A model generated the notes under the pieces. The model searched no databases. It saw nothing but the letters and a program-made list of their open reading frames with translations, and had not been told where the DNA came from. This document shows, piece by piece, positions 22,475 through 50,445 of a stretch of 64,000 nt of DNA; position 1 is the first letter of the stretch, and each line of letters begins with the position of its first letter. This stretch comes from Candidatus Poribacteria bacterium (GTDB lineage: Bacteria > Poribacteria > WGA-4E > WGA-3G), in assembly GCA_965208635.1 (NCBI GenBank), contig OZ242349.1, forward strand, positions 3,852,272 to 3,916,271, written 5' to 3'. Made by a program: the position numbers and the translations under genes.

Positions 22475-23182
22475 TCACTGATTACTAACATCTGACAACC
22501 GCACAAATTGGTACCCATCCTGTTTTAGGGCTGTGATGATTTGATCTGTCGCCTCAACCGTTCCTGAACGATTCGCATCCTTATTCTCTGCTTTCCCATC
22601 GTGTAGAACAATAATCGAACCCGGTTTTGTCTTCGTCAATACCGTTTTAGTGATCTTGTCGGGGTTTTGGGTCGTCCAATCCCAACTCCACACGTTGCAG
22701 CTAATGTGGGCGCGATTCCCTTTCGCGAGCACCCATGCGACTGGCAAAAACCTTGTCAGCACCGGCGCGCGAAACTCGATTTCATCTTCCTTGAAAACCC
22801 CGTTGGGGTGACATCTCTGTAGGAGGGTGTCTGTGCGTTCAATTTCCCGTTGGACATAGGCTGGCGGCAGGAAACCAAGGAGTGGGTGGCTATAAGAATG
22901 ATTGCCGATTTGGTGTCCCTCAACGATAATACGATTTACTGTTTCGGGATGCTTTTCGATCCGATTTCCGATCAGGAAGAAAGTGGCTTTAACATCGTGT
23001 TTCGCAAGGACATCAAGTAATCGATCGGTATAAGGTGGATTCGGTCCATCGTCATAGGTGAGGGCGACAATCCGTTGGTCCGTGTTCAGGCGAACAATAT
23101 TCGTTCCGAAAGGGGGTCTAAAGAACAGCCATAGCAGCATCACCGCGGCGAATGTTACAGCAACTATGATGATAGGGTTCAT
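22475..23182 (-). CDS. polysaccharide deacetylase (NodB homology domain), membrane-anchored
   Basis: 'LTYDDGPNPPYTDRLLDVLAKHDVKATFFLIG' NodB motifs. The start at 23182 gives an ATGA overlap with the crtW stop. The ORF track extends spuriously to 23278. Confidence 0.7.
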   Translation of the reverse strand: MNPIIIVAVTFAAVMLLWLFFRPPFGTNIVRLNTDQRIVALTYDDGPNPPYTDRLLDVLAKHDVKATFFLIGNRIEKHPETVNRIIVEGHQIGNHSYSHPLLGFLPPAYVQREIERTDTLLQRCHPNGVFKEDEIEFRAPVLTRFLPVAWVLAKGNRAHISCNVWSWDWTTQNPDKITKTVLTKTKPGSIIVLHDGKAENKDANRSGTVEATDQIITALKQDGYQFVRLSDVSNQ

Positions 23183-23895
23183 TGAAGGCGCGCTCTCATT
23201 CTCCGTATGACTGGCAAATGCCACCATGGGATGTATGGATACTCGTGGTGTTCCCAATGATACCCGAAGTGGTAACAAGTGATAAACGACCAGAGCGTTG
23301 AATAGGCATTACTCTGCGCGCGGTGAGGGTTATCATACCCACTTTCTGGTATTCGATGTGGTAGATAGGTCCCGAAATAGAACAGTTGCAACGTGCTAAG
23401 CAATGCTGGAGAAACCCAAAACAGGACAAGATTGACGGTGGAAATTGCTAAAATATACTCCATGATTTGAAATACAATCGCCATACCGACTATCTGCTTC
23501 CAACTCAAGTATTCTTTCATGAAATGGAAATACCACGCCAAGAAGCCCGTATGGTGTCCATCGTGAAAATCTGGATCTATATCGCTCGCGGGTGTTCGGT
23601 GGTGCTCCCAGTGTTTTTTTACTAATTTGCGGTATGAAAACAGGGCGTATAGTCTGACAGCGATTGCCCCAATGACATTGTTAATACGCGGATGCGTAGG
23701 ACAAACTGAACCGTGCATCGCATCATGTGCTGTGATAAACAGACCCGTATAGAGAAACGTCTGACAAAGCATGCCCAAAGGCACCACCGCAAGGTGGATG
23801 CGGCTCACATCAAGTGTGAGGAGCATTGAGAGACTCAATCCCCATAAACCGACAATCCCTAACGCAATGAATAAGCCTTTATTTCTTGATTTCAT
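23179..23895 (-). CDS. crtW: beta-carotene 4-ketolase (CrtW-type membrane di-iron enzyme)
   Basis: His boxes 'AHDAMHGS', 'HWEHH' and 'HHEYPYIPWWHLP', and 4 TM helices, as in CrtW ketolases. 238 aa. Confidence 0.65.
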   Translation of the reverse strand: MKSRNKGLFIALGIVGLWGLSLSMLLTLDVSRIHLAVVPLGMLCQTFLYTGLFITAHDAMHGSVCPTHPRINNVIGAIAVRLYALFSYRKLVKKHWEHHRTPASDIDPDFHDGHHTGFLAWYFHFMKEYLSWKQIVGMAIVFQIMEYILAISTVNLVLFWVSPALLSTLQLFYFGTYLPHRIPESGYDNPHRAQSNAYSTLWSFITCYHFGYHWEHHEYPYIPWWHLPVIRRMRARLQ

Positions 23896-24581
23896 AAGTT
23901 GCTTAGACTAACCAATCCAAAATATAGGAGTTGCGCAAAATAGCAGTGAAAAGCGATTCGCGGCAATTGTTGACGAAACAGGCCGACTTGAAAACCGATT
24001 GTCGCGAAGATGAAACTTAATCCAAACCACACCAGATAGTTCCGTAAAGGGATATGGTCGTTCATCCATGTCCAGTAATCCAGTTTCGCTGCCGCCGGTT
24101 CCATAAGCAGATCGAAGCAGACCATTAACAAAGCCACCAGAAATGCTATTTTGAAACGGAAACCTTCTGCTAAAAATTTCGGGATAATCTTCTGAGCAAC
24201 AGCAGTCGAGGCAACGAGCATCACAAACCAAGCAGACCCAATACTGATTGGAACACCACCAATCGATGGTCGCAAGGTCTGTCCATACGAGTATGAACCG
24301 AAAATCTCACCTGTCCGAACACCGAGCCATTCAATCCCAAAACTGACGACAACGATCCCTATACTTGCGATGGCAAACTTCGATCGTTCATGTTGTGGAG
24401 ACTCCCACCAGCATTCCCAAAATAGCCATACGCCCAAACCAATCATGATTGGCGAAGCGAGAACTTGCATGACTTCTTGGAACACACCGAGCACATGCCA
24501 CAAGCCACCCGCGCCTAAAAGTAGATAAAGCGCCCCTATTTTAAGTTTCTTAATTTTGCCTTGTCGTTCGGTTAGGTCCAT
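23892..24581 (-). CDS. polytopic membrane protein, candidate carotenoid 1',2'-hydratase (CruF-like)
   Basis: 229-aa integral membrane protein inside the crt operon, ATGA-coupled to crtW. The assignment is contextual, by analogy with salinixanthin/myxol clusters. Confidence 0.35.
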   Translation of the reverse strand: MDLTERQGKIKKLKIGALYLLLGAGGLWHVLGVFQEVMQVLASPIMIGLGVWLFWECWWESPQHERSKFAIASIGIVVVSFGIEWLGVRTGEIFGSYSYGQTLRPSIGGVPISIGSAWFVMLVASTAVAQKIIPKFLAEGFRFKIAFLVALLMVCFDLLMEPAAAKLDYWTWMNDHIPLRNYLVWFGLSFIFATIGFQVGLFRQQLPRIAFHCYFAQLLYFGLVSLSNL

Positions 24582-24620
24582 TGGGTAAATAACGTCTTAA
24601 CTGAAAACAAAAAACGCCTA

Positions 24621-24710
24621 AGCGCGTAGCCTGCAACAACGGCGCAGGCGGATCTACGGAGAGGCATCTGAAATTACCAATCCCTCTCATCGAACCGCAA
24701 GGTATAATTA
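24621..24710. repeat. repeat family B copy between the GT2 stop and the CruF-like start, inside the operon
   Basis: 'aagcgcgtagcctgcaacaacggcgcaggcggatctacggag...catcgaaccgcaaggtataattaaa' overlaps the GT2 stop codon (24708-24710). Confidence 0.75.
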
Positions 24711-25814
24711 AAGAATCTGTCGTCCCTTCCACTGCAGACGACCGCGTCTGACTTGGTAAAATGAATTAACACCAATCAGCAAAGTCAATAAAACGCCAAA
24801 GGGATGTAAAATTACGCTTGTAACGAAGGGGTGCCTATATTTGAGTGCCAGCACCATCCGCATAACGATGTTCATAACGATAGCAACGATTGCCAATCCT
24901 CTAAGCGTCGCAAACCAGACAGTAATGTACGGTAGCACACACATTGTAAACAGACCGAGCATTAAAATAAAAAACGGTATCATTTTGTAGCGGACCAATC
25001 CAAAAAGGTTTTTGGAAAATCCGTTCCAGACCTCGCTGAACGAATGATACATCCGGCAAGATACCACACACGTTCCCGCCGATGTCAAGATTTTGATACC
25101 TCTCTTTTTCGCCAATCGGCTGAGTTCAACGTCTTCAACAATCTGATTTGATACCGCTTGATGCCCACCGACCCGTTGGTATGCCTCGCGAGTAAAGGCA
25201 ATCCAGAGACCGCTCGCCGCCGCAAGCGACGGGAAACGACTAAAGTAGGTAAGCCATAACGGAAGTCCGGCATAAACGAACAGGTCCACTACCGGAACGA
25301 CGAGTTTTTCTGCCAAGGTGCCAGTCACTTTCTCTGGAAACGCCGAGAGCAAGCCGAGTTCCAACTTCTGCATGTAAGCAACAGTGTTTGCAATCGCGTT
25401 CGGGGCAGGACGGTTATCCGCATCCGTGAAAATGAGTATTTCTCCATCTGCGTGTTGGCTCAGTTGGTGGCACGCCCAGTTTTTTCCAGTCCAGCCTGCT
25501 GGCAACGGTTTACCTTGAATCGCCTGAACTGCAGGATACTGTTCGCCGAATTTTTCAATAATCGTACCCGTGCGATCCGTCGATTGGTCATTGAGAACGT
25601 GAATTTCAAAGTTATCGTAGTTTTGAGACAGGAATCCGTTGATACAGGCACCGATGTTAGTTTCTTCATTACGCGCCGGGATCAGCACCGAGACGCGTGG
25701 ATAGTTCTGGAGACCAACGAATTTCTTCAGCATCGGCGCAGTCACAGTATTAAACAGCGCGACTGCTAAAATAACCGCCAACAGAACTATCGAAATAAGC
25801 ATCAGGATAAACAA
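24708..25814 (-). CDS. family-2 glycosyltransferase (CruC-like carotenoid glycosyltransferase candidate)
   Basis: 'VSVLIPARNEETNIGACINGFLSQNYDNFEIHVLNDQSTDRT' GT2 DxD region, with C-terminal TM helices. 368 aa. Confidence 0.65.
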   Translation of the reverse strand: MFILMLISIVLLAVILAVALFNTVTAPMLKKFVGLQNYPRVSVLIPARNEETNIGACINGFLSQNYDNFEIHVLNDQSTDRTGTIIEKFGEQYPAVQAIQGKPLPAGWTGKNWACHQLSQHADGEILIFTDADNRPAPNAIANTVAYMQKLELGLLSAFPEKVTGTLAEKLVVPVVDLFVYAGLPLWLTYFSRFPSLAAASGLWIAFTREAYQRVGGHQAVSNQIVEDVELSRLAKKRGIKILTSAGTCVVSCRMYHSFSEVWNGFSKNLFGLVRYKMIPFFILMLGLFTMCVLPYITVWFATLRGLAIVAIVMNIVMRMVLALKYRHPFVTSVILHPFGVLLTLLIGVNSFYQVRRGRLQWKGRQIL

Positions 25815-25829
25815 GGTAATACCAACCTT

Positions 25830-26489
25830 TCAATCCAACAGATTTTGTCCCGTTTCTTGGCGAAGAATCCGCAAAGCGAGATCGTCTAATAATGCAGTTT
25901 CAGTCTGTTCGAGCCAATCCATCCCTTGAAATGTGCCCGCATCAAGCGAGTGGACAGTGCCGAACAGAAAAAATACGCGTGGACGCTTTTCACCGAGAAA
26001 CTCGGTGCGAATTGCCAATGGCAGCACAGTGACGGATTTCCGATATTTCCGTAAAATCCATTCGACACCACGTTTGTAACCGAGGGGTCGCGTATGCCAC
26101 GGCAACAGTTCCCCTTGCGGAAAAACGGAGACGAGCGGCATCTCTTGATTCAGTAATTCCACGGTGTATTCAAGGGATTCAATAATACTACGTCGATTCT
26201 CCGGTTCAATTGAATAAGCACCTATTTTTCTAAAGAATTTATATTTCGATAGTTGCTTTTCTAACATCATTAAATAAGCCGTCCGACGAAAGATCTTTTT
26301 GTTCAACAGATAAACGAAGAACCCGTCCCACCATGTACTGTGGTTTGGTAGGAGTAGCACCGGTAGATCGTCGGGTATTTTCGGTAGTGTCCCTAACAAC
26401 TGAATCTCGTGAAAATTCCGCTTGAATAACAAAGTCAGATACGGCTGAAAAATGATGTCCGCCCAAAGGCGGTGCTGTGCACGAATCAT
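25830..26489 (-). CDS. lysophospholipid-type acyltransferase (CruD-like carotenoid glycoside acyltransferase candidate)
   Basis: 'NHSTWWDGF' HX4D acyltransferase motif. ATGA-coupled to crtB. 219 aa. Confidence 0.55.
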   Translation of the reverse strand: MIRAQHRLWADIIFQPYLTLLFKRNFHEIQLLGTLPKIPDDLPVLLLPNHSTWWDGFFVYLLNKKIFRRTAYLMMLEKQLSKYKFFRKIGAYSIEPENRRSIIESLEYTVELLNQEMPLVSVFPQGELLPWHTRPLGYKRGVEWILRKYRKSVTVLPLAIRTEFLGEKRPRVFFLFGTVHSLDAGTFQGMDWLEQTETALLDDLALRILRQETGQNLLD

Positions 26490-27415
26490 CTATTGATTAT
26501 TCCTGAGTGTACAGGAAATAGTTTCTCCTGTGCCGATAGAAATTTTGCCCGAAGTCCCTCGTGTAATAGAATCCCGATTTTCTGACTCGACGGTACAAAG
26601 ACTCGACTTAAGAATGGGTTGTAGTCCTGGTCTTCGATCTTTCTTAAGATACCGCGGTAAATTTTAGCCGCCGAATAAATCGCATACTGCGATTCCGTTT
26701 CGAGTAAAGAAATACCAGGCATGGCTTCAGCATAATAGTGATCTGCTCGTTCAATTTGAAATTTCATCAGGGCTTTCAATTGGGGTGTTATTTTTTCTTC
26801 TAAGATGTCTTGCTCCGCTACGCCGAACCTCACCAAATCCTTCTCTGGTAGATAGATGCGTCCCATATCCTTATCCTCCTTGATGTCCCGAAGGATATTG
26901 GTGAGTTGCATGGCAATGCCGAGTTGTTTGGCGTAATCAAAGGCACGTTCGTCCTTATAGCCGAGGACGTGAGTCATCATCAATCCAACAACAGCCGCAA
27001 CGCGATAACAGAAAAGAGAGAGTTCATCGAATGTTTTATACCGCGTCTGCTGGACATCCATGGCAACTCCCTTGAGCAAATCGAGCGGATATTCAATAGG
27101 GATACCATACGCCTTGGCAACGAGAATGAACGCACGAATAATTGGATGTTGAGACTCACCTGTATTGTAAGCAACCTGTAATTCTTCTGTCAAGAGTTGT
27201 ATCTCCCTAACGATTTCTATTTCAGTGCGTTGACGCGGTGTATCAATCAGATTGTCGCAGTGTCGACAGAAACCGTATAGTGCGTATGTTGCCCAACGCC
27301 GCTCTTTGGGCAGCATCCGTGTTGAGAAGTAAAAACTTTTTGAATAGTAGGCGGTTATCCTACGAGCATACTCAAAGGCAACCCGATTTTCTTCTACTTT
27401 CCACATTTTCTTCAT
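26486..27415 (-). CDS. crtB: phytoene synthase
   Basis: 'YGFCRHCDNLID' and 'ILRDIKEDKDMGRIYLP' squalene/phytoene synthase Asp-rich motifs. 309 aa. Confidence 0.85.
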   Translation of the reverse strand: MKKMWKVEENRVAFEYARRITAYYSKSFYFSTRMLPKERRWATYALYGFCRHCDNLIDTPRQRTEIEIVREIQLLTEELQVAYNTGESQHPIIRAFILVAKAYGIPIEYPLDLLKGVAMDVQQTRYKTFDELSLFCYRVAAVVGLMMTHVLGYKDERAFDYAKQLGIAMQLTNILRDIKEDKDMGRIYLPEKDLVRFGVAEQDILEEKITPQLKALMKFQIERADHYYAEAMPGISLLETESQYAIYSAAKIYRGILRKIEDQDYNPFLSRVFVPSSQKIGILLHEGLRAKFLSAQEKLFPVHSGIINR

Positions 27416-28956
27416 GATAAACCCTCCTGAATCAAATCTTTAGCGACAAGTTTCGTCGTCGTCTCTGCTGTCAGCAGAACACCCGGTACGCCTGCTCCGG
27501 GATGTGTGCTTGCGCCGACAAAGTAGAGTTTCTGTATATCTTCACTTCGGTTATGCGGTCGAAAATACGCTGTTTGTGTTAGTTTTGGCTCAACTCCCCA
27601 TGCACTACCCAGATGGTTGTTCCGTTCCCGCCTAAAATCTGACGGCGTAAACGTTTCAAGCACTTCAATTGAACACTTTAGGTCCGTCAGTCCAAAATCA
27701 TTTTCCAAGAACGTTAGCACTTTGTCCGTATATGCCACCTTCGTCTTCTCCCAGTTGACCCCACTCTCCAGATTCGGCACTGGGATCAGGACATACATAC
27801 TCTCGCAGCCTTCCGGTGCCATTGACGGGTCGGTTTGAGACGGAATGTGGAGATACATTGAAAAATCCTTTGGGAGCACTTTATTATCAAAGATGTCATC
27901 TATCAATCCTTTATATCTCTCGGAAAGAATGAGTGTATGGTGCTTCAGTTGCGGATATTTCTTACGGACACCGAGATAGAGCAGGAAGGCACTCATCGAA
28001 TATTGGATCTTTCGGAGTTTCTTGTCAGACCATTTTCTACGATGTTCGGACTTAATAAGTTCACCATAGGTGTGGAACAGATCGGCATTCGAAATAACCC
28101 CGTCTGCTTCATAAAATTTTAACCAAGAACGCGCGCCTTTAACATGTATATCGGAGTCGCGTTCTTGGTTAACGTTCGCTAAAACTCCCTTTGCTTTTCG
28201 ATTTTTAACAACGATTTCTTCAACTTCTGTGTCAGTCTCAACGATGCCACCGAGTCTTTTGAAGACGTTCTCTAATGCCTGAACAAAGTTGTACATACCA
28301 CCTTTACAGAACCAGACCCCTCCAGTTTTTTCAAGATAAGGGATCATCAAGTAGACCGCGGGTGCCCGAAAAGGGTTGCCACCAATAAACAGCGGATGAA
28401 ATGAGAAGGTGAAGCGATGACGCGGATCCTCAAAATACCTCTTAACAAAATCGTAGGCGGGCATCAATGCCTGGAGTCGCAGCGCACGCGGCAGAAAACC
28501 GAGCATCGTCGGCAAATCAAATGCGGTCGCGCCTAACCCGTCTGTGATAACAGCATCGTAAAGTTGACGAGTATGCGCCATGAAATGGTCGTAGTTATCA
28601 GCGTCTGTTGTACTAAACTGAGCCATTTGACGTTTCATCTGTTCGCTATCAGCCGTATAATCGAGAGATGTACCATCATGAAAATAGATGCGATAAAATG
28701 GGTCGAGTTTCACCAAGTCAAGGTAATCTTCCATCCGTACCCCGGCACATTCAAACACGCGTTGAATCAAGTCAGGCGCAGTGATAATCGACGGTCCCAT
28801 GTCGAAGGTATAGCCTTCTTTAACCAGTTGATAAGCATGACCACCAACTTTCGCATTCTTCTCCAGAAGCGTGACTTGCATGCCTCTGGCTTGGAGTCGG
28901 ATCCCTGCTGCGAGTCCGCCAAATCCTGAACCGATGATAACAATTTTCCGCTTCAT
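27412..28956 (-). CDS. crtI: phytoene desaturase (CrtI family)
   Basis: 'KIVIIGSGFGGLAAGIRLQARGMQVTLLEKNAKVGGHAY' FAD fold and a conserved CrtI C-terminus. 4-nt overlaps on both sides. 514 aa. Confidence 0.8.
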   Translation of the reverse strand: MKRKIVIIGSGFGGLAAGIRLQARGMQVTLLEKNAKVGGHAYQLVKEGYTFDMGPSIITAPDLIQRVFECAGVRMEDYLDLVKLDPFYRIYFHDGTSLDYTADSEQMKRQMAQFSTTDADNYDHFMAHTRQLYDAVITDGLGATAFDLPTMLGFLPRALRLQALMPAYDFVKRYFEDPRHRFTFSFHPLFIGGNPFRAPAVYLMIPYLEKTGGVWFCKGGMYNFVQALENVFKRLGGIVETDTEVEEIVVKNRKAKGVLANVNQERDSDIHVKGARSWLKFYEADGVISNADLFHTYGELIKSEHRRKWSDKKLRKIQYSMSAFLLYLGVRKKYPQLKHHTLILSERYKGLIDDIFDNKVLPKDFSMYLHIPSQTDPSMAPEGCESMYVLIPVPNLESGVNWEKTKVAYTDKVLTFLENDFGLTDLKCSIEVLETFTPSDFRRERNNHLGSAWGVEPKLTQTAYFRPHNRSEDIQKLYFVGASTHPGAGVPGVLLTAETTTKLVAKDLIQEGLS

Positions 28957-30449
28957 ACGTCCTTGCTCCTGTCATAATTTTCCGCGATTAATGTCGCCGC
29001 TATTTTTCCAGACAATATTACCAACGGAATTCCGCCTCCCGGATGCACTGAACCCCCCGCGAAGTAAAGCCCGTCAAGGAGACGGCTTCGATTCGGTAGA
29101 CGCTTAAATGCTGTGGCTTTGCTATTCGACGATACACCGTAGATACTCCCTTGGTTACTGGCATAAAGTTCAGAGAAATCCTCTGGTGTGTAAATCTGCT
29201 CTACCTCAATCTGATCTGCGATGTCGAAACCCAGTTGCTTTAATCTATCCAGCACAACCTGCCGCATCCGAGTTTTTTCTTGCTCCCACATCTGTCCGGG
29301 GACCAAATACGGCATGTTCAACAACACGAACCAATTCTCGCCATCAACTGGCGCATCCACCGTATCCGTCTTACTTGTTATGGCAATATAGATAGTCGGT
29401 TCATCTGGTACTTTTCGATGTTTGAAAATCTGCTTGAATTCTGCATTATAGTCGTTGGAGAAAATAATGTTGTGATGTGCTAACGCTGGCTGTTTCGCTC
29501 TAACGCCCCACAGGAATACCATTCCAGACAACGATGGCTCCAAGCGATTGAGTCTTTTTTCTCGAGTCTGATGTCCATCAATCAATTCGTCATGTGCTAC
29601 GACTGCATCCGCACCACAGAGTACGTACTTCGCCCCAACTTTCTCACCATTCACTCGCACCCCACTCACCCGTTTGTCATCATGACAGATTTTTTCGACT
29701 TTCGCCGATGTATGAATCTGAACACCTAACTCACATGCCACCGCTTTCAAAGCATCGATCAAACGGTATATTCCGCCTTTGATATAGTACCCTCCTAATC
29801 CGTATTCAATATACGGAATTATGTTAAGGGTCGCCGGGGCTTGAAATGGATCGGAACCGTTGTAAGTCGCGTAGCGGTCAAAGAGTTGAATGAGCCGCGA
29901 GTCAGAGAAAAAACGTGACACGCTTTGGTGTACCGTCCGAAACGGATCAATTTGATGAAGCCTGAATAACGTCCGAAAGTGCCGATGTCGCATGAGTTTC
30001 CTAAATTCATGGATCGGAGTAAACATAAAGATTTCGGCTGTTAGATTGTGAATACGTTCTGCATATTTCAAGAACCGTTCATACGCCTTCACATCACTCG
30101 GCGATAGCTGGGCAATAGCGGCTTTCATTTTTGTCTTATCCGCACTGGCATCCATCACGGCACCATCAGGGAAGAAGTATCGGCATATCGGGTCAATTGG
30201 CACGAAATCGAGATAATCCGACCTCTTGAATCCAGCGAAATTGAAGAGTTCATCGATGACAGAGGGCATCGTCAGCAATGAGGCACCCGTGTCAAACCGA
30301 TAGTCTGCCAAAACTACCTCGTTTACCTTTCCACCGAGCTGCGGATTCTTCTCAAATAGCTGAACGGAGAATCCTAAGCGTGCAAGGCGAATCGCACCAC
30401 TCAGTGATCCAAGTCCACCACCAATGACTGCTACTGTTTTATTTTCCAT
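28953..30449 (-). CDS. CrtI-family carotenoid desaturase (CrtD-like 3',4'-desaturase candidate)
   Basis: 'MENKTVAVIGGGLGSLSGAIRLARLGFSVQLFEKNPQLGGK'. Start placed at the internal ATG (30449), which is preceded by the repeat-B start context 'caggaacaattaaaaaATG'. The ORF track extends to 30575. Confidence 0.65.
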   Translation of the reverse strand: MENKTVAVIGGGLGSLSGAIRLARLGFSVQLFEKNPQLGGKVNEVVLADYRFDTGASLLTMPSVIDELFNFAGFKRSDYLDFVPIDPICRYFFPDGAVMDASADKTKMKAAIAQLSPSDVKAYERFLKYAERIHNLTAEIFMFTPIHEFRKLMRHRHFRTLFRLHQIDPFRTVHQSVSRFFSDSRLIQLFDRYATYNGSDPFQAPATLNIIPYIEYGLGGYYIKGGIYRLIDALKAVACELGVQIHTSAKVEKICHDDKRVSGVRVNGEKVGAKYVLCGADAVVAHDELIDGHQTREKRLNRLEPSLSGMVFLWGVRAKQPALAHHNIIFSNDYNAEFKQIFKHRKVPDEPTIYIAITSKTDTVDAPVDGENWFVLLNMPYLVPGQMWEQEKTRMRQVVLDRLKQLGFDIADQIEVEQIYTPEDFSELYASNQGSIYGVSSNSKATAFKRLPNRSRLLDGLYFAGGSVHPGGGIPLVILSGKIAATLIAENYDRSKDV

Positions 30450-30545
30450 ATTTTTAATTGTTCCTGAAGACTCGCGCAATTCCTTACAGGCTACGCGCTT
30501 TAGTTTACCCAAGACAGCAGCCTGCAACATCGGCGCAGGGTTTTT
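30450..30545 (-). repeat. repeat family B copy (minus orientation) supplying the crtD-like start context
   Basis: 'cagcctgcaacatcggcgcagggtttttgcaatgtaat...' is followed on the minus strand by 'ggaacaattaaaaaATG'. 'ggctacgcgctt' is the inverse of 24620-24631. Confidence 0.6.
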
Positions 30546-30684
30546 GCAATGTAATACATTGTCCCGCAAGTCCACACGTTGTCCTCGGATGCCACACGCG
30601 CATCCGTTCTGGTGCTACGGATTTCGTCTATCCCCAGACGAAATCCGGTGTTTCTTCAAGATTTGAGAAACGCACGCAACAGTT

Positions 30685-31377
30685 CTAACGCCCGTTGTTT
30701 CTCCGCAAGGTAAAATTAAAAACTTTTTCGTAGAACATTGCGTTAAAGAGCATCAATGTAAATCCGTATCCGAAATCCTCAATGGGAATTGTCAAAATTC
30801 GGTAACCCATCTGATGCGCCTCACCATATAAAACCACAGGTCGCGCCGTGAGATAACTGTTGAATATCAGAATTAAACCAAAAACAATTCCAATATAGAT
30901 ATAGGTCTTCAGTTGCATAAGCAACTCGGTCCGTAGCAACGTGTCTGTCAGTCCAACAAGCCCAACACAAATCAGAACCAATCCTGTGTACTGCTTACCC
31001 GTGCTGAAAACCCATACACCGATCGGCAGTGCTACGTATAAAACTGTTCTGACATGCCGAAGAGGTCTCAATCGTGTTGATAGTTTCGCATCCGACAATG
31101 TTTCCCATACCAACAGACATCCATAAGGGGCAGTGATGAAAAAGAACCATTCTCCAATCGGCAAACCGAGCAATCGGAAGTCAAGCGTATACGTCTCGTT
31201 GAACCACCAATGTGAACCAGTGACAAGGATGTCCCATATAATATACGGGATCATGACGAACACCGTCGTGAGCAATTTCAATCGCCAATGTGATATATGC
31301 CTAATTTGCTGGTTGAATTGCGATACTACCGGTCCAACGACCACAATGAGATTAAACAAGAGGTATTCAAATTGCAT
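30685..31377 (-). CDS. lycopene cyclase, fused CrtYc/CrtYd-domain type
   Basis: Two halves each with a PxE(E/D)xxF motif ('LPIGEWFFF', 'IPIEDFGYGF'). 7 TM helices. 230 aa. Confidence 0.65.
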   Translation of the reverse strand: MQFEYLLFNLIVVVGPVVSQFNQQIRHISHWRLKLLTTVFVMIPYIIWDILVTGSHWWFNETYTLDFRLLGLPIGEWFFFITAPYGCLLVWETLSDAKLSTRLRPLRHVRTVLYVALPIGVWVFSTGKQYTGLVLICVGLVGLTDTLLRTELLMQLKTYIYIGIVFGLILIFNSYLTARPVVLYGEAHQMGYRILTIPIEDFGYGFTLMLFNAMFYEKVFNFTLRRNNGR

Positions 31378-31394
31378 TGATGTGCGACTCGGTG

Positions 31395-31970
31395 CTACGG
31401 TTGTAATCTGTCTTTCAACGTTTGGAGGTATACTTTCTCGTCATCCGTCAATTTTGCATTTTCAAGTAAGAACGCAACGACCTGTGTCATTAACTTCGGG
31501 TTATAGGTATCCATCTGCTGTGGCATCAATTTGATAATTTCCCTGAAATCGCGCTGAGCGTCATCACCACGTCTGAAAAAGAATGGAAGATAGTAGCAGG
31601 TCGTACCGTGGATGAAAAGAGCTTCAATATCGTTTGAACTTTTCTCTAAGCCGCTATCCATGATTGCTAAACCGCGCTGCGCCCACTTGAGTTTGGTGTG
31701 TGGAAGAAATGCGTGTTTGCCTCTCAGCGCAATAAGTGAACCAATATAGACCTGCGTCCGCCCAGTGTACTTCGGTTCCATTTGTCTAATTCGTTTAAGC
31801 AACGCAATTGTCGGTTCAATCCGTTTCTCGTCTTTGATCGCGGCATAGAATTGCTTTCGAGCAACTTCCAGCATTTCTTCTACCGATTTCTCGGACGTAG
31901 CACCGTCAACTCGCAACGAGAAAATCAATGCTAATATCAAACTTATATATACACATCGGTTAGGTTTCAT
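31395..31970 (-). CDS. hypothetical secreted alpha-helical protein
   Basis: Signal peptide 'MKPNRCVYISLILALIFSL' with a likely start at 31970. No known motif. Lies inside the crt operon. Confidence 0.45.
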   Translation of the reverse strand: MKPNRCVYISLILALIFSLRVDGATSEKSVEEMLEVARKQFYAAIKDEKRIEPTIALLKRIRQMEPKYTGRTQVYIGSLIALRGKHAFLPHTKLKWAQRGLAIMDSGLEKSSNDIEALFIHGTTCYYLPFFFRRGDDAQRDFREIIKLMPQQMDTYNPKLMTQVVAFLLENAKLTDDEKVYLQTLKDRLQP

Positions 31971-32535
31971 CGCAAAAACTGATTTTTTGGGAGTGTTCAA
32001 CAACGCGATCTAACGCCAGTTTGAACCAGTGTGTGTAATTTTTCGGGTTCTCCCGAACATCCTGCTTCAACACCTGTATGTCCATCCACTTCCAATCATC
32101 AACTTCGTCCGGATTCGGAATAGGTTGACCACTATAGTGTCCAACAAAGACATAGTCGAGCTCGTGCTCAAATAAGCTATTGTCGAGTTGGATGTGGTAA
32201 ATAAAACTGAAAATCTCCTTAAGGTCACAATCGAAACCCATTTCCTCATGGAGGCGTCGCCGCGCCGCGTGATGATGATTTTCACCAGGTCGTGGGTGAC
32301 TACAACAGGTATTCGTCCACAATCCGCCGGAGTGATACTTCGTTTGTGCCCGTCTCTGAAGCAGCAATTCGCCTACAGCGTTAAAGACAAAGACCGAAAA
32401 GGCACTGTGTAATTTACCATCACGATGTGCTTGTATCTTTTCTTGAACGCCGATTTCTTTTCCCGTGTGATCGACGAGTATTACATGCTCTTGCATCGCT
32501 TTATATTTTTTCCTTTTCCTCGGTTGTGCTTTCAT
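31960..32535 (-). CDS. idi: isopentenyl-diphosphate delta-isomerase, type 1 (Nudix)
   Basis: 'HSAFSVFVFN..GELLLQRRAQTKYHSGGLWTNTCCSHP' and 'HEEMGF' are IDI-1 signatures. 191 aa. Confidence 0.8.
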   Translation of the reverse strand: MKAQPRKRKKYKAMQEHVILVDHTGKEIGVQEKIQAHRDGKLHSAFSVFVFNAVGELLLQRRAQTKYHSGGLWTNTCCSHPRPGENHHHAARRRLHEEMGFDCDLKEIFSFIYHIQLDNSLFEHELDYVFVGHYSGQPIPNPDEVDDWKWMDIQVLKQDVRENPKNYTHWFKLALDRVVEHSQKISFCDET

Positions 32536-33006
32536 ACCGATCTGCTGTCTAATCGCGATCGGTATGATTTTCCAGTTTAAATTGGGGACTGAATCACTAT
32601 GTATAATATTATTACATATTGTCTATATTATGTCAACAATAATTTAGACAATATCATAATTATTCGTATTTTGTATAGAAATTGTGTGGCGAAATAGAAT
32701 CGGATCGTTCAATCAAAATTCACTATAAAGTGGCGATTCTAAACGAGATTGAGATATTCTCTTTGTTAGGTTCTGAAACTTAGACAGATATAATTTATTG
32801 ACAAATAATAGACATAATGTTATATTAAATCGTAAGATTTAGATGTAAAACGTAAACGTTGACGATATGGTTTACAATTGCTAAATGAACCCGTGTGGTG
32901 ATATTATAATTCGACTGGAATTAGATTTTAATATACTGCTCATGATGTTAACTCAGCAACACCGATGAAACATTAAGCTCCAATAGGAAAATAAAAGAGG
33001 GAAAGG
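32536..33006. promoter_or_regulatory. 470-bp AT-rich bidirectional control region between the crt operon and the carH-like gene
   Basis: Sharp AT spike with direct repeats of 'ttgacaa-ataat-agaca(a)ta' type at about 32620-32660 and 32790-32830. Candidate CarH operator or promoters. Confidence 0.5.
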
Positions 33007-33978
33007 TTGATGGCGGATGAATATAAACACGGTATTAAAACCGTTGCCAGTCAGACAGGATTAACACAATTTATCATTCGGGCGTGGGAGAAACGGTACG
33101 ATGTGGTCACACCGCGGCGAACCGAAACGAATCGCCGCCTCTATTCCGATGCGGATATACTGCGTCTCACGTTGCTTCGTTTGGCGACTGAGGCGGGGCA
33201 TAACATTGGACGAATAGCAAAGTTGCCGAGTGAAGAACTTCTGGAGCTCATTGGAACAGGTGGGACAGTCGCACAGTTGCCTCGGATCGCGAAAGAGGTC
33301 GTCCCACAAGAAACATCGCTTCGTTTTTACATCGCTTCGTGCATCGCAGCGGTTAAGCAGTTTGAAGCACAAGCACTTGAGTCGACACTCTTCGCGGCAT
33401 CAGTCGCCTTTAGCCAGCCTATTTTCCTGGAAAAGTTGATTACACCGTTGATGCAGGAAGTTGGTGAACAGTGGAAGGCAGGAACTTTGCGGATTGCCCA
33501 CGAACATCTTACCGCGGCGGTTGTCCGGACACTGTTGGGAAATATTTGCCAAGGATCTGATATATCCACCTCAATGCCAAACTTAGTGGTCGCTACACCT
33601 CGGGGGCAGCTCCACGAAATCGGCGCATTGATTGCAGGAACGACTGCAGCCTCGCAAGGATGGCAAGTCACCTATCTCGGTCCCAATCTGCCAGCTGAAG
33701 AAATTGTAGGATGTGCAGTGCAAAATGGGGCAAAAGCAATTGGGTTGAGTATCGTTTATCCCACAGATGATCCACACTTGGTAAATGAATTGCGCAAACT
33801 TCGACGTGGAATCCAAGAGGGTGTTGCACTGTTTGTTGGAGGGAGCGGGGCAAGTGCTTATGATCCTGTCATTAGTGCTATCGGGGCAGTGAGAATCAAT
33901 GATATGTCGACTTTTCGGACCGAACTCGAAGCCTTGCGTGTGCAACAGAACGCCTCAGAAACGTCGGAGGAATCGTAG
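33007..33978 (+). CDS. MerR-family transcriptional regulator with C-terminal cobalamin-binding domain (CarH/LitR-like photoreceptor)
   Basis: N-terminal MerR HTH 'IRAWEKRYDVVTPRRTETNRRLYSDADILRL'. B12-binding signature 'GQLHEIGALI' (ExHxxG), 'SxL' and 'FVGGSGA'. 323 aa. Confidence 0.75.
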   Translation: MMADEYKHGIKTVASQTGLTQFIIRAWEKRYDVVTPRRTETNRRLYSDADILRLTLLRLATEAGHNIGRIAKLPSEELLELIGTGGTVAQLPRIAKEVVPQETSLRFYIASCIAAVKQFEAQALESTLFAASVAFSQPIFLEKLITPLMQEVGEQWKAGTLRIAHEHLTAAVVRTLLGNICQGSDISTSMPNLVVATPRGQLHEIGALIAGTTAASQGWQVTYLGPNLPAEEIVGCAVQNGAKAIGLSIVYPTDDPHLVNELRKLRRGIQEGVALFVGGSGASAYDPVISAIGAVRINDMSTFRTELEALRVQQNASETSEES

Positions 33979-34092
33979 CGGAGAGACTACCTTGGTTCAA
34001 ATTGCCAGTTCTCGATCATCGAACAAGAGTTGTGTGGTAACAGAAACGACTTCGTTACGCTCGCGTCTTTAACCAATAACTGATAACCGAAA

Positions 34093-34109
34093 GGATTTCG
34101 CAGAAATCC
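34093..34109. terminator. small hairpin ggatttc-gca-gaaatcc in a family-C repeat between convergent genes
   Basis: 7-bp stem located between the carH-like stop (33978) and the GH29-like stop (34135). Confidence 0.3.
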
Positions 34110-34134
34110 ATACCGAGAACCATTCTGCCAATGA

Positions 34135-36066
34135 CTATTCCCCTCGAATCGCTTGTCGTAAGGTTCTCATCTGCTCAAGTGTTGCAGGTGAGACTTTTCC
34201 ATCCTGAGTAATCCCCATGTTCATTGTAATTACCAACTTCTGGGCAATACAGATCTGCACATAATCAATAAGCCGCTGAGTGGCAAATATGGGTGGCGCA
34301 ATATCGGTCTCTGGATATCCATGCTGCCAAGGATCGTCAAGAAAGATCATACCGTGTGGTTGTAATCCACTTGCGCTGCCATCTGCGGCAAAGAAACTTG
34401 CTGGTGGATTTACGAGAGCACCGCCAAACTCACCACCGTAGTACTCTTGAAATTCAGTCGTTTTAGGGAGAATCCAACTGTTCCAAGCGACAATACGGTC
34501 AGGATTCCCAGCTTTGGTCGCTTCATACAATTCTTCAAACGGTTGGAGCGGATACCGATCATCAAACCAGTATCCCGCAACCTTTTTGCCGTATCGGTGT
34601 CCCATCTCGGTAAGAATATCGCGTTCAATTCTGAAAAATTCCGACTTGTCTGGACTTAAAAACCCAGTGGCTTTCATCCACTCTGTATCTCCAACGCCAT
34701 GATGGAAATACAGAATAAGGGGTATATCATGTTTTTGCAGCGCGTCAGCCATCTCTCCAATTAGATCGCGTTCGCAAATACGTTCCGGTATAACCGCTTT
34801 GATCGATTTCAGCGGAGCAGGAAAATGCATAATTCCGTGGACAGCAGTGAAAATGACGTAGCCCGCCCCAGTTTCACGCACCATATCGGCGAAAGTATCG
34901 ATATCAAAAGCGTTCACCGCTTCTGGATAGGATTTTTGTGGACCCCGTAGCGGCTGTGTCGTTGTTGACCAGTGGAACATCACGCCATATTTCGCCTCGA
35001 CGAACCAATCGGTACTCGCTCGTATCTTTTGAGCCTTTTTCCTTGAAGCAATCGTTGCCTTTGCCGCGGTGGGTGAAATCAGTTCAAGCGAATGGACTTT
35101 TACGTTTTCTGTAGAGTTTGCCTCTCCGATGAGACGCAGCGTAATTGGACTTTCACCTTCGGGAACGTGCAATGTCTCCTGAAGCGGTACCCGTTCAAAA
35201 TTCTGCGAATCCCCTGCCCATCCTGTCGTTTGGCGGACTGTCCAAGTAATTTTGCCTTGTCCTGTGGTAATCTCGAACGTTGAACCTATTGCATCAGCAT
35301 CAGCAGTGTAGGTTAGCGCAATTTCATAATCAGAAGGCACCCGGAGTTTCACCTTCCATGAAAGTGAAGCGGATGGTTTGTTCCAACCCTCAATCCAGTC
35401 CTGTGCCTGCAAATGGGCAAGACCGCCATCTGTCTTGGCGCTGTCCCCAAAAAGATAAATAACCGACGAAGGATCTGCTTCAACCAACTGCGGTTTCTTA
35501 AGCGTAGCGGGATCCCCGTCAATATCAAGAACGACGATGTCGTCAACACCGTTTTGGTATTCCTCCGGGACCACGATCAAAAGTCCCCATGGATGCTGTC
35601 TCACAATGCCCCACGAAGCACCATCTGCTGTAGGATGTTCCAGAATCCACGCGTTCTTCACCACCCGATCGGTGATGGCTGGAAGGGTGATATTGTTCTT
35701 TCCCTCCCAAGAAAGCACATGAACGTAGACTCTGCCATCCTTGTAGGTTGTGACGTATTGGTCGGTAGGTTTAAAGGGACCGCCGCGAGTGTCGATAATC
35801 GATTCCCCGTTCTCCTTAATCCACTCTTGAATCATTTCGTTCGCTCCAGTGAATCTCGATGTTTTTTGGCTATTCGACAATGGATTGACATTGATCTCTG
35901 AGTCGCTGCCCACTGCACGCACCATATCTACAATCAACGCTTTGGAGGTTCCTTGATTATGCATAATTTCCTCTTGTGTGTGGGCAATAAAGACCAAGCA
36001 GCTGAGCGCAAGTAAAATTGCAAAAAACGAACTTAGCATGAAACTTGCCTGATTTTCCCAAACCAC
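34135..36066 (-). CDS. secreted multi-domain glycosidase, C-terminal GH29 alpha-L-fucosidase-like domain
   Basis: Signal peptide. 'AKYGVMFHWSTT...AGYVIFTAVHGIMHFP...YWFDD' resembles the GH29 catalytic core. 643 aa. Confidence 0.45.
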   Translation of the reverse strand: MVWENQASFMLSSFFAILLALSCLVFIAHTQEEIMHNQGTSKALIVDMVRAVGSDSEINVNPLSNSQKTSRFTGANEMIQEWIKENGESIIDTRGGPFKPTDQYVTTYKDGRVYVHVLSWEGKNNITLPAITDRVVKNAWILEHPTADGASWGIVRQHPWGLLIVVPEEYQNGVDDIVVLDIDGDPATLKKPQLVEADPSSVIYLFGDSAKTDGGLAHLQAQDWIEGWNKPSASLSWKVKLRVPSDYEIALTYTADADAIGSTFEITTGQGKITWTVRQTTGWAGDSQNFERVPLQETLHVPEGESPITLRLIGEANSTENVKVHSLELISPTAAKATIASRKKAQKIRASTDWFVEAKYGVMFHWSTTTQPLRGPQKSYPEAVNAFDIDTFADMVRETGAGYVIFTAVHGIMHFPAPLKSIKAVIPERICERDLIGEMADALQKHDIPLILYFHHGVGDTEWMKATGFLSPDKSEFFRIERDILTEMGHRYGKKVAGYWFDDRYPLQPFEELYEATKAGNPDRIVAWNSWILPKTTEFQEYYGGEFGGALVNPPASFFAADGSASGLQPHGMIFLDDPWQHGYPETDIAPPIFATQRLIDYVQICIAQKLVITMNMGITQDGKVSPATLEQMRTLRQAIRGE

Positions 36067-36120: not shown

Positions 36121-37173
36121 TCATTGAATCAGATCTGCCACACACCGAAAGCCGATCCAGACGGTATTGTCGGGCACCGATTTTTTCAAAGTTGGTTTCA
36201 CTTGTGGTTTCTGTTCCTGATTTTGTTTTTTCTTCTCTATAGGGATGTTCTTATCCAAAACAGGTTTCTTCAAGCCTGAATATTCGACTGACTGCGGGAA
36301 CCCAGTCGCTGTAGGAGAGAGTTTTAGACGGCGGGACAGTCGTAGGTGCTGAAGATAACTTGACCATCCACTGCCTCTTAATACTCGTTCAGTTCCCGTT
36401 TCTGGACCCTTTGGATTGTCCGGAGCAGAATCTGCATAATAACTGTCACTATACCAATCCGCACACCATTCCCAAACGTTCCCCGTCATATCATATAATC
36501 CGTAGCCGTTAGCGTTATAACTCCCGACCGGTGCTGTATATAAATAACCGTCATCAGCCTGTTCTCCGCCAACGGAACCGGTAAAATTGCAGTCTGTTCC
36601 TTCGGGGGGCTGATTTCCCCAAACGTACCGTTTCCCCACTAACCCGCCTCGTGCTGCGTACTCCCATTCGGCTTCGGTGGGTAGCCGTTTTCCCGCCCAC
36701 TGGGCATAGGCTTCGGCATCGTTAAACGTGATACCTACTACGGGGTGATTGTCGGTGGGTGTGGTGAAATCGACCAACTGCTGCACGCCTTTTTGTGCGA
36801 GTACAATCGCCTTTTCTGCTATCCAATTAGGTGTTTGCTCCGGTAAAGTTCCGTGGACTGTCTCTTTTAGAAAACGTTTATATTGTCCAATTGTCACTTC
36901 ATATCGATCCATATAAAAAGCGTCTAACTCTACTTGGTGGACAGGGAGTTCATCTGCCGTGCCTTCATCGAAATGGTCCCCCATTTCAAAAGAACCTGCA
37001 GGGAGCAAAACCATCGAGGCACCATCCTTCTCCGAAATAATCACGCGAAACGGCATCCCATCAACGACTTCGGTTTGGTTTATCTCAGGTTGTTCTTCAA
37101 CCGTCTCATCTTCACCACAACCCGCTAAGACAATCCCGATCAATAGACTGTATATTAATTTTCTCATAACCAA
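36121..37173 (-). CDS. formylglycine-generating-enzyme (FGE/SUMF1) domain lipoprotein
   Basis: Lipobox 'LAGCG', 'RVLRGSGWSS', 'WEWCADWY'. 350 aa. Confidence 0.7.
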   Translation of the reverse strand: MVMRKLIYSLLIGIVLAGCGEDETVEEQPEINQTEVVDGMPFRVIISEKDGASMVLLPAGSFEMGDHFDEGTADELPVHQVELDAFYMDRYEVTIGQYKRFLKETVHGTLPEQTPNWIAEKAIVLAQKGVQQLVDFTTPTDNHPVVGITFNDAEAYAQWAGKRLPTEAEWEYAARGGLVGKRYVWGNQPPEGTDCNFTGSVGGEQADDGYLYTAPVGSYNANGYGLYDMTGNVWEWCADWYSDSYYADSAPDNPKGPETGTERVLRGSGWSSYLQHLRLSRRLKLSPTATGFPQSVEYSGLKKPVLDKNIPIEKKKQNQEQKPQVKPTLKKSVPDNTVWIGFRCVADLIQ

Positions 37174-50082: not shown

Positions 50083-50285
50083 TGAGATGCCGCTATTTGT
50101 GCTTCAAACGCGGTGTAGTCTTTCCGATTGCCAGTAATGGTGTCATATCCTTCTGGAATATCAGCCCCAGTCTGTCCGCGGTTGTAGAGCGTCACAGCGT
50201 CGCCACGCGCAATAAGGGCACGAGTAATCGCCGTGCTAATCAACCCTGTACCACCAATAATCAAAACCCGCATGAATATCTCCAA
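50052..50285 (-). pseudogene. N-terminal remnant of an NAD-dependent epimerase/dehydratase (truncated after ~65 aa)
   Basis: 'MRVLIIGGTGLISTAITRALIARGDAVTLYNRGQ' is a canonical Rossmann N-terminus. The frame degenerates and stops at 77 aa. It overlaps the neighbouring gene. Confidence 0.5.
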
Positions 50286-50445
50286 CCCGTTTGAGAATAA
50301 AATTTCTTTCTATGGCTCAGTATACTTGGAAATATGGCGAATGTCAATCCGAAAATCGTCTTCAGGACTTGCAAAATCATTGCGGGGTGCTATAATGTTA
50401 TTTTTAAAAAAGAAATTCGCGACAACGCGTCCAGAGGAGGAACAC

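Follow-up and report, generated by a model that had tools for sequence, protein, structure and literature searches.

A predicted CarH-type, coenzyme B12-dependent photoreceptor repressor encoded divergently from the carotenoid operon of a Candidatus Poribacteria sponge symbiont

A stretch of 64,000 nucleotides from a Candidatus Poribacteria bacterium (assembly GCA_965208635.1, contig OZ242349.1, positions 3,852,272 to 3,916,271; hereafter the window) contains a carH-like regulatory gene that is transcribed divergently from a carotenoid operon. The product of this gene is likely to be a CarH-type, coenzyme B12-dependent photoreceptor that represses the carotenoid operon of this sponge symbiont. 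The evidence comprises the domain architecture, fold and motifs of the protein, the anatomy of two divergent promoters, the conservation of both promoters and gene order in related Poribacteria, and published field data on an orthologous operon. The coordinates of the features discussed are collected in Table 1.

Table 1. Features of the carH-like locus and its surroundings (positions in the window)
Feature	Position	Strand	Description
carH-like gene	33010..33978	+	322 aa; MerR DNA-binding domain, long linker, four-helix bundle, Rossmann B12-binding domain
Recognition-helix motif RAWEKRY	33079..33099	+	Read from the sequence; family consensus RxWERRY
Wx9EH motif, W155...E165-H166	33472..33507	+	Aligned to TtCarH W131/E141/H142
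Lower-ligand motif, Q200-L-H202-E-I-G205 (QxHxxG)	33607..33624	+	H202 aligned with TtCarH His177
G277-G278	33838-33843	+	Invariant GG of the B12 motif
PcarH promoter and predicted operator	32794..32826	+	-35 TTGACA 32798-32803; 17 nt; TG and -10 TATATT 32821-32826
PcarH direct repeats (DR)	DR1 32794-32804; DR2 32805-32815 (TAGACA); degenerate 32816-32826	+	11-bp register
Pcrt promoter and predicted operator	32608..32640	-	-35 TTGACA 32636-32631; 17 nt; TG and -10 AATAAT 32613-32608
Pcrt direct repeats	DR1 32640-32630; DR2 32629-32619 (TAGACA); degenerate 32618-32608	-	11-bp register
Conserved block TTTTGTATAGAAATTGTGTGG	32667..32690	.	Between the two promoters; conserved in alignments
idi (type 1 isopentenyl diphosphate isomerase)	31960..32496	-	First operon gene; NCBIfam PRK03759, 175 bits against a cut-off of 127
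Gene for a 191-aa protein	31395-31970	-	Between idi and lycopene cyclase
Rest of the operon	22475..31970	-	Assigned with Pfam and NCBIfam

Domain architecture and motifs of the regulator

A first-pass annotation, made from the sequence alone, had described a 323-aa protein with a MerR helix-turn-helix and a C-terminal B12-binding domain, encoded divergently from the carotenoid operon, and each of these points was borne out. The open reading frame (ORF), which ends at 33978, is real and yields 323 aa from a TTG at 33007 or 322 aa from the adjacent ATG at 33010; the latter is the likelier start and is preceded by the Shine-Dalgarno sequence GGGAAAGG. Three Pfam domains exceed their curated cut-offs in the protein, namely MerR_1 (residues 10-73, E 1.7e-14), B12-binding_2 (139-178), and B12-binding (193-286, E 7e-14). 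Their order is that of the Thermus protein TtCarH/LitR (PDB 5C8D, 5C8E, 5C8F, 3WHP), in which a MerR domain is followed by a four-helix bundle and a Rossmann fold, and TtCarH is the best match in both sequence and fold. In a phmmer search of the PDB, the top matches were 3whp and 5c8d (E 1.5e-25 and 2e-25), with both domains aligned. An AlphaFold2 (AF2) model built from 17 homologues reached a predicted local distance difference test (pLDDT) score of 81, with weak spots at linker residues 83-98 and a few short stretches, and the top Foldseek matches of this model were all TtCarH, in its dark, light and DNA-bound states (5c8d/5c8e/5c8f; E 1e-13 to 1e-15). The interdomain linker exceeds that of TtCarH by about 15-20 residues and has low model confidence. 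The nearest proteins come from metagenome-assembled genomes (MAGs) of Candidatus Poribacteria, the product of locus L001 (chromosome OZ244804.1) being 99% identical.

The regulator and TtCarH share the Wx9EH motif, the His lower ligand, SxV, GG, and the recognition-helix motif RxWE(R/K)RY. In an alignment of 17 clade members, on which all statements about invariant residues are based, R24, W26, E27, K28, R29, and Y30 of the recognition helix are invariant; its single departure from the consensus RxWERRY (PMC9304148) is a conservative R to K change, and RxWEKRY is also present in 60 of 150 distant relatives. The comparison with Thermus CarH/LitR proposed in the first-pass annotation brings both the Wx9EH motif and the equivalent of the His177 ligand into register. 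The Wx9EH motif caps the adenosyl group in CarH (PMC9304148, PMC8156234), and in the clade W155, H164, E165, and H166 are invariant. The full B12 motif reads Q200-x-H202-x2-G205-x41-S247-x-V-x27-G277G278, in which Q200, H202, G205, S247, G277, and G278 are invariant; apart from the first residue, every element and spacing fits the published motif D/ExHx2G/P-x41-SxT/V-x22-27-GG (PMC9304148). The strings GQLHEIGALI and VGGSGA named in the first-pass annotation are both present, the former having been mislabelled as ExHxxG when it is in fact QxHxxG. In addition, the GxxW/EH/GxxH/GxxxP signature is complete (G152..W155, E165-H166, G199..H202, G224..P228). It was reported, using SignatureFinder, that proteins bearing this signature were light-responsive and that one protein without it failed to bind adenosylcobalamin (PMC11796333). 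These motifs point to adenosylcobalamin as the probable chromophore.

Divergent promoters and candidate operators

The spacer between carH and the idi ORF (32536-33006) is 471 bp long and has a G+C content of 30.6%, against a mean of 47.8% (standard deviation 3.5%) for 471-nt segments of the window, and the segment of this length with the lowest G+C content of the whole 64 kb (29.7%) falls within it. The AT-rich spacer shared with idi that had been annotated (470 bp in a genome of about 50% G+C) was thereby recovered, with two corrections: the genome has a G+C content of about 48%, and the likely idi start is at 32496 rather than 32535 (see below), which makes the spacer effectively 513 bp.

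A promoter scan of the spacer detected two divergent near-consensus sigma-70 promoters, PcarH and Pcrt, each scoring 11/12 and having a 17-nt spacer and a TG before the -10 box. With such spacers, near-consensus hexamers and TG extensions, both should be strong unless repressed, and their transcripts are predicted to start near 32833 on the plus strand (PcarH) and near 32601 on the minus strand (Pcrt). The two modules are 33-nt inverted repeats of each other, with 76% complementarity. At each promoter, a first canonical repeat of the form nnnnTnnACAn holds the -35 box, a second canonical repeat follows, and a third retains the T, though not the ACA, over the -10 box. According to the published CarH operator rule, operators are built from 11-bp nnnnTnnACAn units in tandem and take in the -35 box, as described for Tt, Bm and myxobacterial CarH (PMC9304148). 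Both modules fit this rule and are predicted operators. The loose tandem array of ttgaca/tagaca repeats in the first-pass annotation can thus be replaced by two separate modules of opposite orientation, each with two canonical repeats and one degenerate repeat; the repeats themselves stood up, as they fit the CarH rule and are footprinted in 12 loci (see below).

The 23-nt core shared by both modules, TTGACA-N5-TAKACA-N3-TGT, occurs exactly twice in the 64 kb, once per strand and both times in the spacer, against 0 expected from 100 shuffles. The spacer contains 13 TnnACA hexamers, compared with 6.0 +/- 2.5 in shuffles. The generic pattern TnnACA-N5-TnnACA is not significant in the window (4 found, 2 expected), so that the argument for operators rests on the longer shared core and its conservation, of which the spacer repeat is the informative part. 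A third in-phase canonical repeat was rejected, since the 11-mers flanking both repeats lack ACA. Further TAGACA sequences upstream, at 32781 for PcarH and, on the opposite strand, at 32645 for Pcrt, do not keep the 11-bp phase and were not counted.

Classical MerR-type activators bind between the -35 and -10 boxes, remodel the promoter upon a change of ligand, and act on promoters with over-long spacers of 19-20 bp. The regulator could be suspected of acting in this way because it has a MerR-type DNA-binding domain, because the position of the conserved element, between the -35 and -10 boxes, is that of MerR activator sites, and because ACA-N3-TGT and a 16-nt palindrome (94%) are present. However, the spacers of both promoters have the optimal length of 17 nt, with near-consensus hexamers and TG extensions, which is not the configuration of a MerR-activator promoter; the repeats, as in CarH operators, are direct and spaced by 11 bp; and all characterised MerR-B12 proteins are repressors (PMC9304148, PMC8156234). 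Activation of the MerR type is thus highly improbable, and repression is the predicted mode of action.

With regard to other elements of the spacer, no Rfam match at E <= 1 was detected in 32300-34300 when riboswitches and structured leaders were looked for, and the fold of the carH leader is no more stable than that of shuffled sequences (z 0.18). An inverted TGTAAA/TTTACA pair in this leader (32844-32849 and 32871-32876; leader 32827-33009) is kept in 9-10 of the 12 loci compared below. Small ORFs were also considered and rejected; those touching the region are short and of low complexity (20-51 aa), and none is gene-like.

Conservation of the modules in Poribacteria and beyond

The window was compared with 11 other Poribacteria loci (nine genome loci and metagenome loci L022 and L044). 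Each of these 12 loci has one copy of each promoter module, and the regulators encoded there share 80-99% identity with that of the window. Among 10 aligned loci, a 29-nt block at Pcrt varies at a single A/T column. The Pcrt promoter spacer TAATATAGACAATA varies only at its second T (T/A), in four loci, whereas the adjoining DNA has diverged. The TnnACA form is retained in all 12 loci at both Pcrt repeats and at 32798, and in 11 of 12 at 32809. The two -35 boxes lie 158-173 bp apart in 11 loci; in L007, where an insertion lies between the promoters, the distance is 276 bp. On the other side of PcarH, the carH leader ranges from 73 to 416 nt among close relatives because of insertions, and the rest of the spacer diverges. 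The block TTTTGTATAGAAATTGTGTGG between the promoters carries a minus-strand TATACA that is kept in all 12 loci, 41 bp upstream of the Pcrt -35 box; CarH might make an additional contact in this block, or a second factor might bind there. The order of genes from carH to the acyltransferase gene is kept in 10 of 11 related genomes.

Two related loci were found without the modules. In L002, whose carH is 97% identical, an insertion replaces the 5' end of idi together with Pcrt; this strain may have lost regulated expression, or the arrangement may be an assembly artefact. In L008 (8400-9957), a carH orthologue (83% identical) lies directly after an unrelated gene, and no AT-rich spacer, operators, or carotenoid genes were found within 9 kb. 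A palindrome resembling repetitive extragenic palindromic (REP) elements, GAGGTTTCTAACCTCGCC, lies inside the insertions of L002 (8600-8730) and L007 (between the promoters).

A degenerate form of the operator pattern was also used to scan Joint Genome Institute (JGI) metagenomes, and 31 loci were returned. Beyond two orthologous Poribacteria loci, four of the matches belong to unrelated bacteria and have a carotenoid or CarH context; the enzymes of these bacteria share 26-40% identity with those of the window. The remaining matches, mostly on AT-rich contigs without obvious links, are probably due to chance or ordinary promoters. The motif is located directly upstream of crtI, followed by a carH-like gene with RAWERRY, in L020; between crtC and an NmrA-like gene in L037; divergent from crtB and a cytochrome P450 gene in L043; and 2 kb from a gene for a 444-aa MerR-B12 protein with a DUF1731 epimerase gene in L042. 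In L020 (1740-1850) and L043 (1-90), a divergent promoter accompanies the one with the operator. The second repeat of this divergent promoter, TGGACA, is 9 bp rather than 11 bp from the -35 T, which may represent a variant operator geometry.

It could be supposed that the conservation of the spacer reflects nothing but strong promoters and AT-rich, UP-like DNA, with the real binding site being elsewhere or of a different kind. Roughly half of the conserved core is made up of the TTGACA, TG, and -10 boxes, and, within the window, the generic two-repeat pattern is not rare (see above). The sequence of a promoter spacer is as a rule unconstrained, whereas TAATATAGACAATA is near-invariant at Pcrt, and the spacer repeat recurs both at the two promoters and at carotenoid or carH loci of unrelated bacteria. 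A promoter-only origin of the conservation is therefore very unlikely, and the two modules are best read as candidate CarH operators.

Daytime expression of the orthologous operon

The first-pass annotation predicted light-induced carotenogenesis, a prediction with which independent field data agree. In a diel metatranscriptome of the sponge Aplysina aerophoba published in 2026 (PMC12879404), transcripts of Poribacteriota lycopene cyclase and idi were higher in daylight. Table S5 of that study contains just five day/night-differential genes for Poribacteria bin 44, four of which lie in the carotenoid operon: EOFLFANN_02934 (idi; log2 fold change -6.27), 02935 (hypothetical protein; -6.51), 02936 (lycopene cyclase; -5.85), and 02938 (phytoene desaturase, crtI; -4.0), the negative sign denoting higher expression in daylight (PMC12879404). 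The most strongly day-induced of the bin 44 genes, EOFLFANN_02935, is the orthologue of the 191-aa protein encoded downstream of idi in the window. The metagenome locus L044 (contig Ga0209543_1001208) encodes idi, hypothetical and lycopene cyclase proteins that are 100% identical to those of bin 44. L044 also has, in the same layout as the window, a carH gene whose product is 83% identical to the regulator, together with both operator modules. The evidence for light induction consequently comes from published in-situ data on an orthologous locus, not on the window itself, and is a correlation as regards the regulator. The study names no regulator and mentions neither MerR nor CarH (PMC12879404), and none of the papers searched links Poribacteria with CarH. 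A repressor that senses light through B12 probably explains why the pigment genes are switched on at noon inside the living sponge.

Comparison with characterised B12-dependent regulators

Several observations weigh against identifying the protein as a CarH photoreceptor. Its score with the NCBIfam equivalog model NF052513 ('HTH-type transcriptional repressor CarH') is 111.4 bits and does not reach the cut-off of 400; judged by this profile, the regulator is a member of the CarH family at the superfamily level only, not an equivalog of the NF052513 seed proteins. The closest characterised proteins are about 25-27% identical to it (TtCarH about 26%). Relative to TtCarH, Gln200 replaces the acidic first residue of the B12 motif (QxHxxG for ExHxxG), Lys156 replaces His132, the second His that provides the bis-His ligand of the light state, and the Arg176-Asp201 salt bridge of the dimer is replaced by Leu201-Asn226, so that the dimer interface may differ from that of TtCarH. 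Only two canonical repeats are present per promoter, and promoter function alone could account for the conservation of TTGACA and of the TG in ATGT, which also serves as the extended -10 element. Furthermore, no cob/btu or other genes for B12 synthesis or uptake were detected among the scanned ORFs of the window, and carH, though predicted to regulate itself, is not among the day-induced bin 44 genes in Table S5.

With regard to the repeats, characterised CarH operators have three or four canonical repeats, and two canonical repeats plus a degenerate one have also been described (PMC9304148). The locus differs from that of TtCarH, which has three repeats, by its two separate operators 161 bp apart, each with two canonical repeats and one degenerate repeat, at divergent promoters. 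It resembles the TtCarH locus in that 11-bp TnnACA direct repeats include the -35 box and the regulatory gene is divergent from carotenoid genes. CarH proteins of the myxobacteria M. xanthus, Cystobacter, and Sorangium are likewise responsible for B12-dependent photoregulation of carotenoid operons, with operators that mix canonical and degenerate repeats and with divergent crt-carH pairs in some species (PMC9304148). Myxobacterial operators have up to five repeats, and some of these systems add CarA and CarS, nothing like which was seen here.

As for the altered residues, a relevant comparison is CtMerR of Chloracidobacterium thermophilum (PDB 8JBS/8JBT), a protein of 327 aa with W156/E166/H204 (322 aa and W155/E165/H202 in the regulator). 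CtMerR, like the regulator, lacks an equivalent of His132, and it was reported to be a tetramer in the dark when bound to adenosylcobalamin and a monomer after illumination (PMC11796333). Since a protein of nearly the same numbering without this His still passes from tetramer to monomer in light, Lys156, the missing salt bridge, the longer linker and the low NF052513 score are no argument against photoreception. The similarity between the two proteins is weak (E 1.9e-9) and confined to the B12 domain. The DNA-binding domain of CtMerR is reported to be divergent from that of CarH, whereas the regulator keeps the CarH recognition motif and has an identifiable candidate operator.

A different possibility is that the protein is a B12-independent, CarA-like repressor or a plain sensor of B12 status, with daytime induction being brought about by singlet oxygen and an extracytoplasmic function (ECF) sigma factor, by an antirepressor, or by another photoreceptor. 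CarA of Myxococcus xanthus has the two-domain architecture and operator type found here and works without B12 (PMC9304148). The Gln in place of Asp/Glu, the missing His132 and the missing salt bridge also make the clade unlike proven CarH proteins, and carH itself is not day-induced in bin 44. However, it is the Wx9EH motif that separates CarH from B12-independent CarA (PMC9304148, PMC8156234); CarA is marked by the loss of its Trp (PMC9304148), and in the regulator the motif is intact and invariant. In addition, the signature associated with light responsiveness and adenosylcobalamin binding is complete, CtMerR responds to light without His132, and no ECF sigma, anti-sigma, or CarS-like gene adjoins the locus. 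Regulation without light sensing by the protein itself is thus unlikely, and a B12-dependent photoreceptor repressor is preferred.

The Gln-variant clade

A HMMER scan of 1.84 billion cluster representatives returned 1,403 proteins at E <= 1e-30, of which the 150 best (representatives at 50% identity) were inspected. These 150 are 38-52% identical to the regulator, which is far closer than TtCarH. Wx9EH occurs in 139 of them and QxHxxG in 127, against ExHxxG in only 6. Judged from these sequences, the regulator belongs to a large Gln-variant branch of the CarH family that is as yet uncharacterised. In this branch the His that ligates cobalt has a neutral Gln as its partner in place of an acidic residue, and EH is preceded by a conserved His (HEH). 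The clade includes lineages such as Poribacteria, candidate division KSB1 and Deltaproteobacteria; the named members come from MAGs of the latter two and are annotated merely as MerR family. Photolyase-related and DUF1731-epimerase genes are typical of light regulons, and two distant relatives adjoin genes of this type, one a photolyase-related gene and the other genes for a DUF1731 epimerase and an SRPBCC protein. The combination of QxHxxG, no His132-type ligand, HEH, no dimer salt bridge, and a minimal two-repeat operator with an extended -10 could mean that cofactor tuning, light-state chemistry and the oligomer interface are unlike those of TtCarH, a suggestion that is speculative and rather doubtful.

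Proposed mechanism

The following scheme is inferred for the locus. In the dark, the protein would bind adenosylcobalamin, with His202 as the lower ligand and Wx9EH over the adenosyl group, and would then oligomerise, by analogy into a tetramer. The oligomer would occupy the tandem 11-bp TnnACA repeats, which extend from the -35 box across the spacer into the -10 box of the two strong divergent sigma-70 promoters. RNA polymerase would thereby be blocked at Pcrt, which is predicted to serve idi together with a keto-carotenoid glycoside operon of up to 12 genes, and also at PcarH, with autoregulation as the outcome. Light would break the Co-C bond and dissociate the oligomer, whereupon DNA binding would be lost and the pigment genes would be turned on.

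The carotenoid operon and its neighbourhood

After idi, the operon comprises genes for the 191-aa protein, a lycopene cyclase, a CrtD-like desaturase, CrtI, CrtB, and an acyltransferase, followed in its distal part by a GT2 glycosyltransferase, a CruF-like hydratase, the ketolase CrtW (368.6 bits against a cut-off of 350), and possibly a polysaccharide deacetylase; the operon has up to 12 genes. From these enzymes and by analogy with known pathways, the product is predicted to be a keto-carotenoid glycoside, perhaps acylated.

The idi ORF reaches 32535, and a perfect 11-bp inverted repeat, TCATACCGATC...GATCGGTATGA, at 32532-32567 spans its first ATG. Because this repeat is absent from L006 and L009 and a conserved AAGGA Shine-Dalgarno sequence precedes the ATG at 32496, from which orthologues begin M(M)QEH, it is suggested that idi starts at 32496 and that the hairpin is a dispensable element of the 5'-untranslated region.

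No Pfam or NCBIfam family was detected in the 191-aa protein. It has 280 matches, the few named ones all being from Poribacteria, and the family has been seen so far only in this group. The protein has an N-terminal hydrophobic helix followed by helical repeats that resemble tetratricopeptide repeats (TPR) (AF2 pLDDT 76; weak best PDB match, E 3e-3), and it could be a pigment-handling or envelope factor.

At 30449-30684, the crtD-like ORF has an unlikely N-terminal extension of 42 residues from a GTG. Judged from its flavin adenine dinucleotide (FAD)-binding start, MENKTVAVIGGG, about 235 nt would separate this gene from that for the lycopene cyclase, enough to accommodate an internal promoter.

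Among the proteins encoded around the locus are one with an FGE-sulfatase domain, a large one with BNR/YCF48-like repeats, and one with WD40 repeats (36121-37173, 50233-53262, 55244-57556). Poribacteria genomes typically encode such sulfatase-linked and eukaryote-like repeat proteins.

Conclusions

The CarH-type system was already known, and the way in which such systems work is unchanged by the present finding; the variations at the level of the clade, namely the Gln partner of the ligand, the absence of His132 and of the Arg-Asp pair, and the two-repeat operator, may or may not matter functionally. What is gained is a concrete and testable mechanism for a field observation, in which four of the five day/night genes of bin 44 lie in one operon and no regulator was proposed. 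The compact promoter-operator pair and the Gln-variant B12 domain are possible optogenetic parts. The predicted regulator would extend the range of B12-based photoreception to a candidate phylum that is uncultivated and host-associated, and it would link the photoprotection of the symbiont to the availability of B12 inside the sponge.

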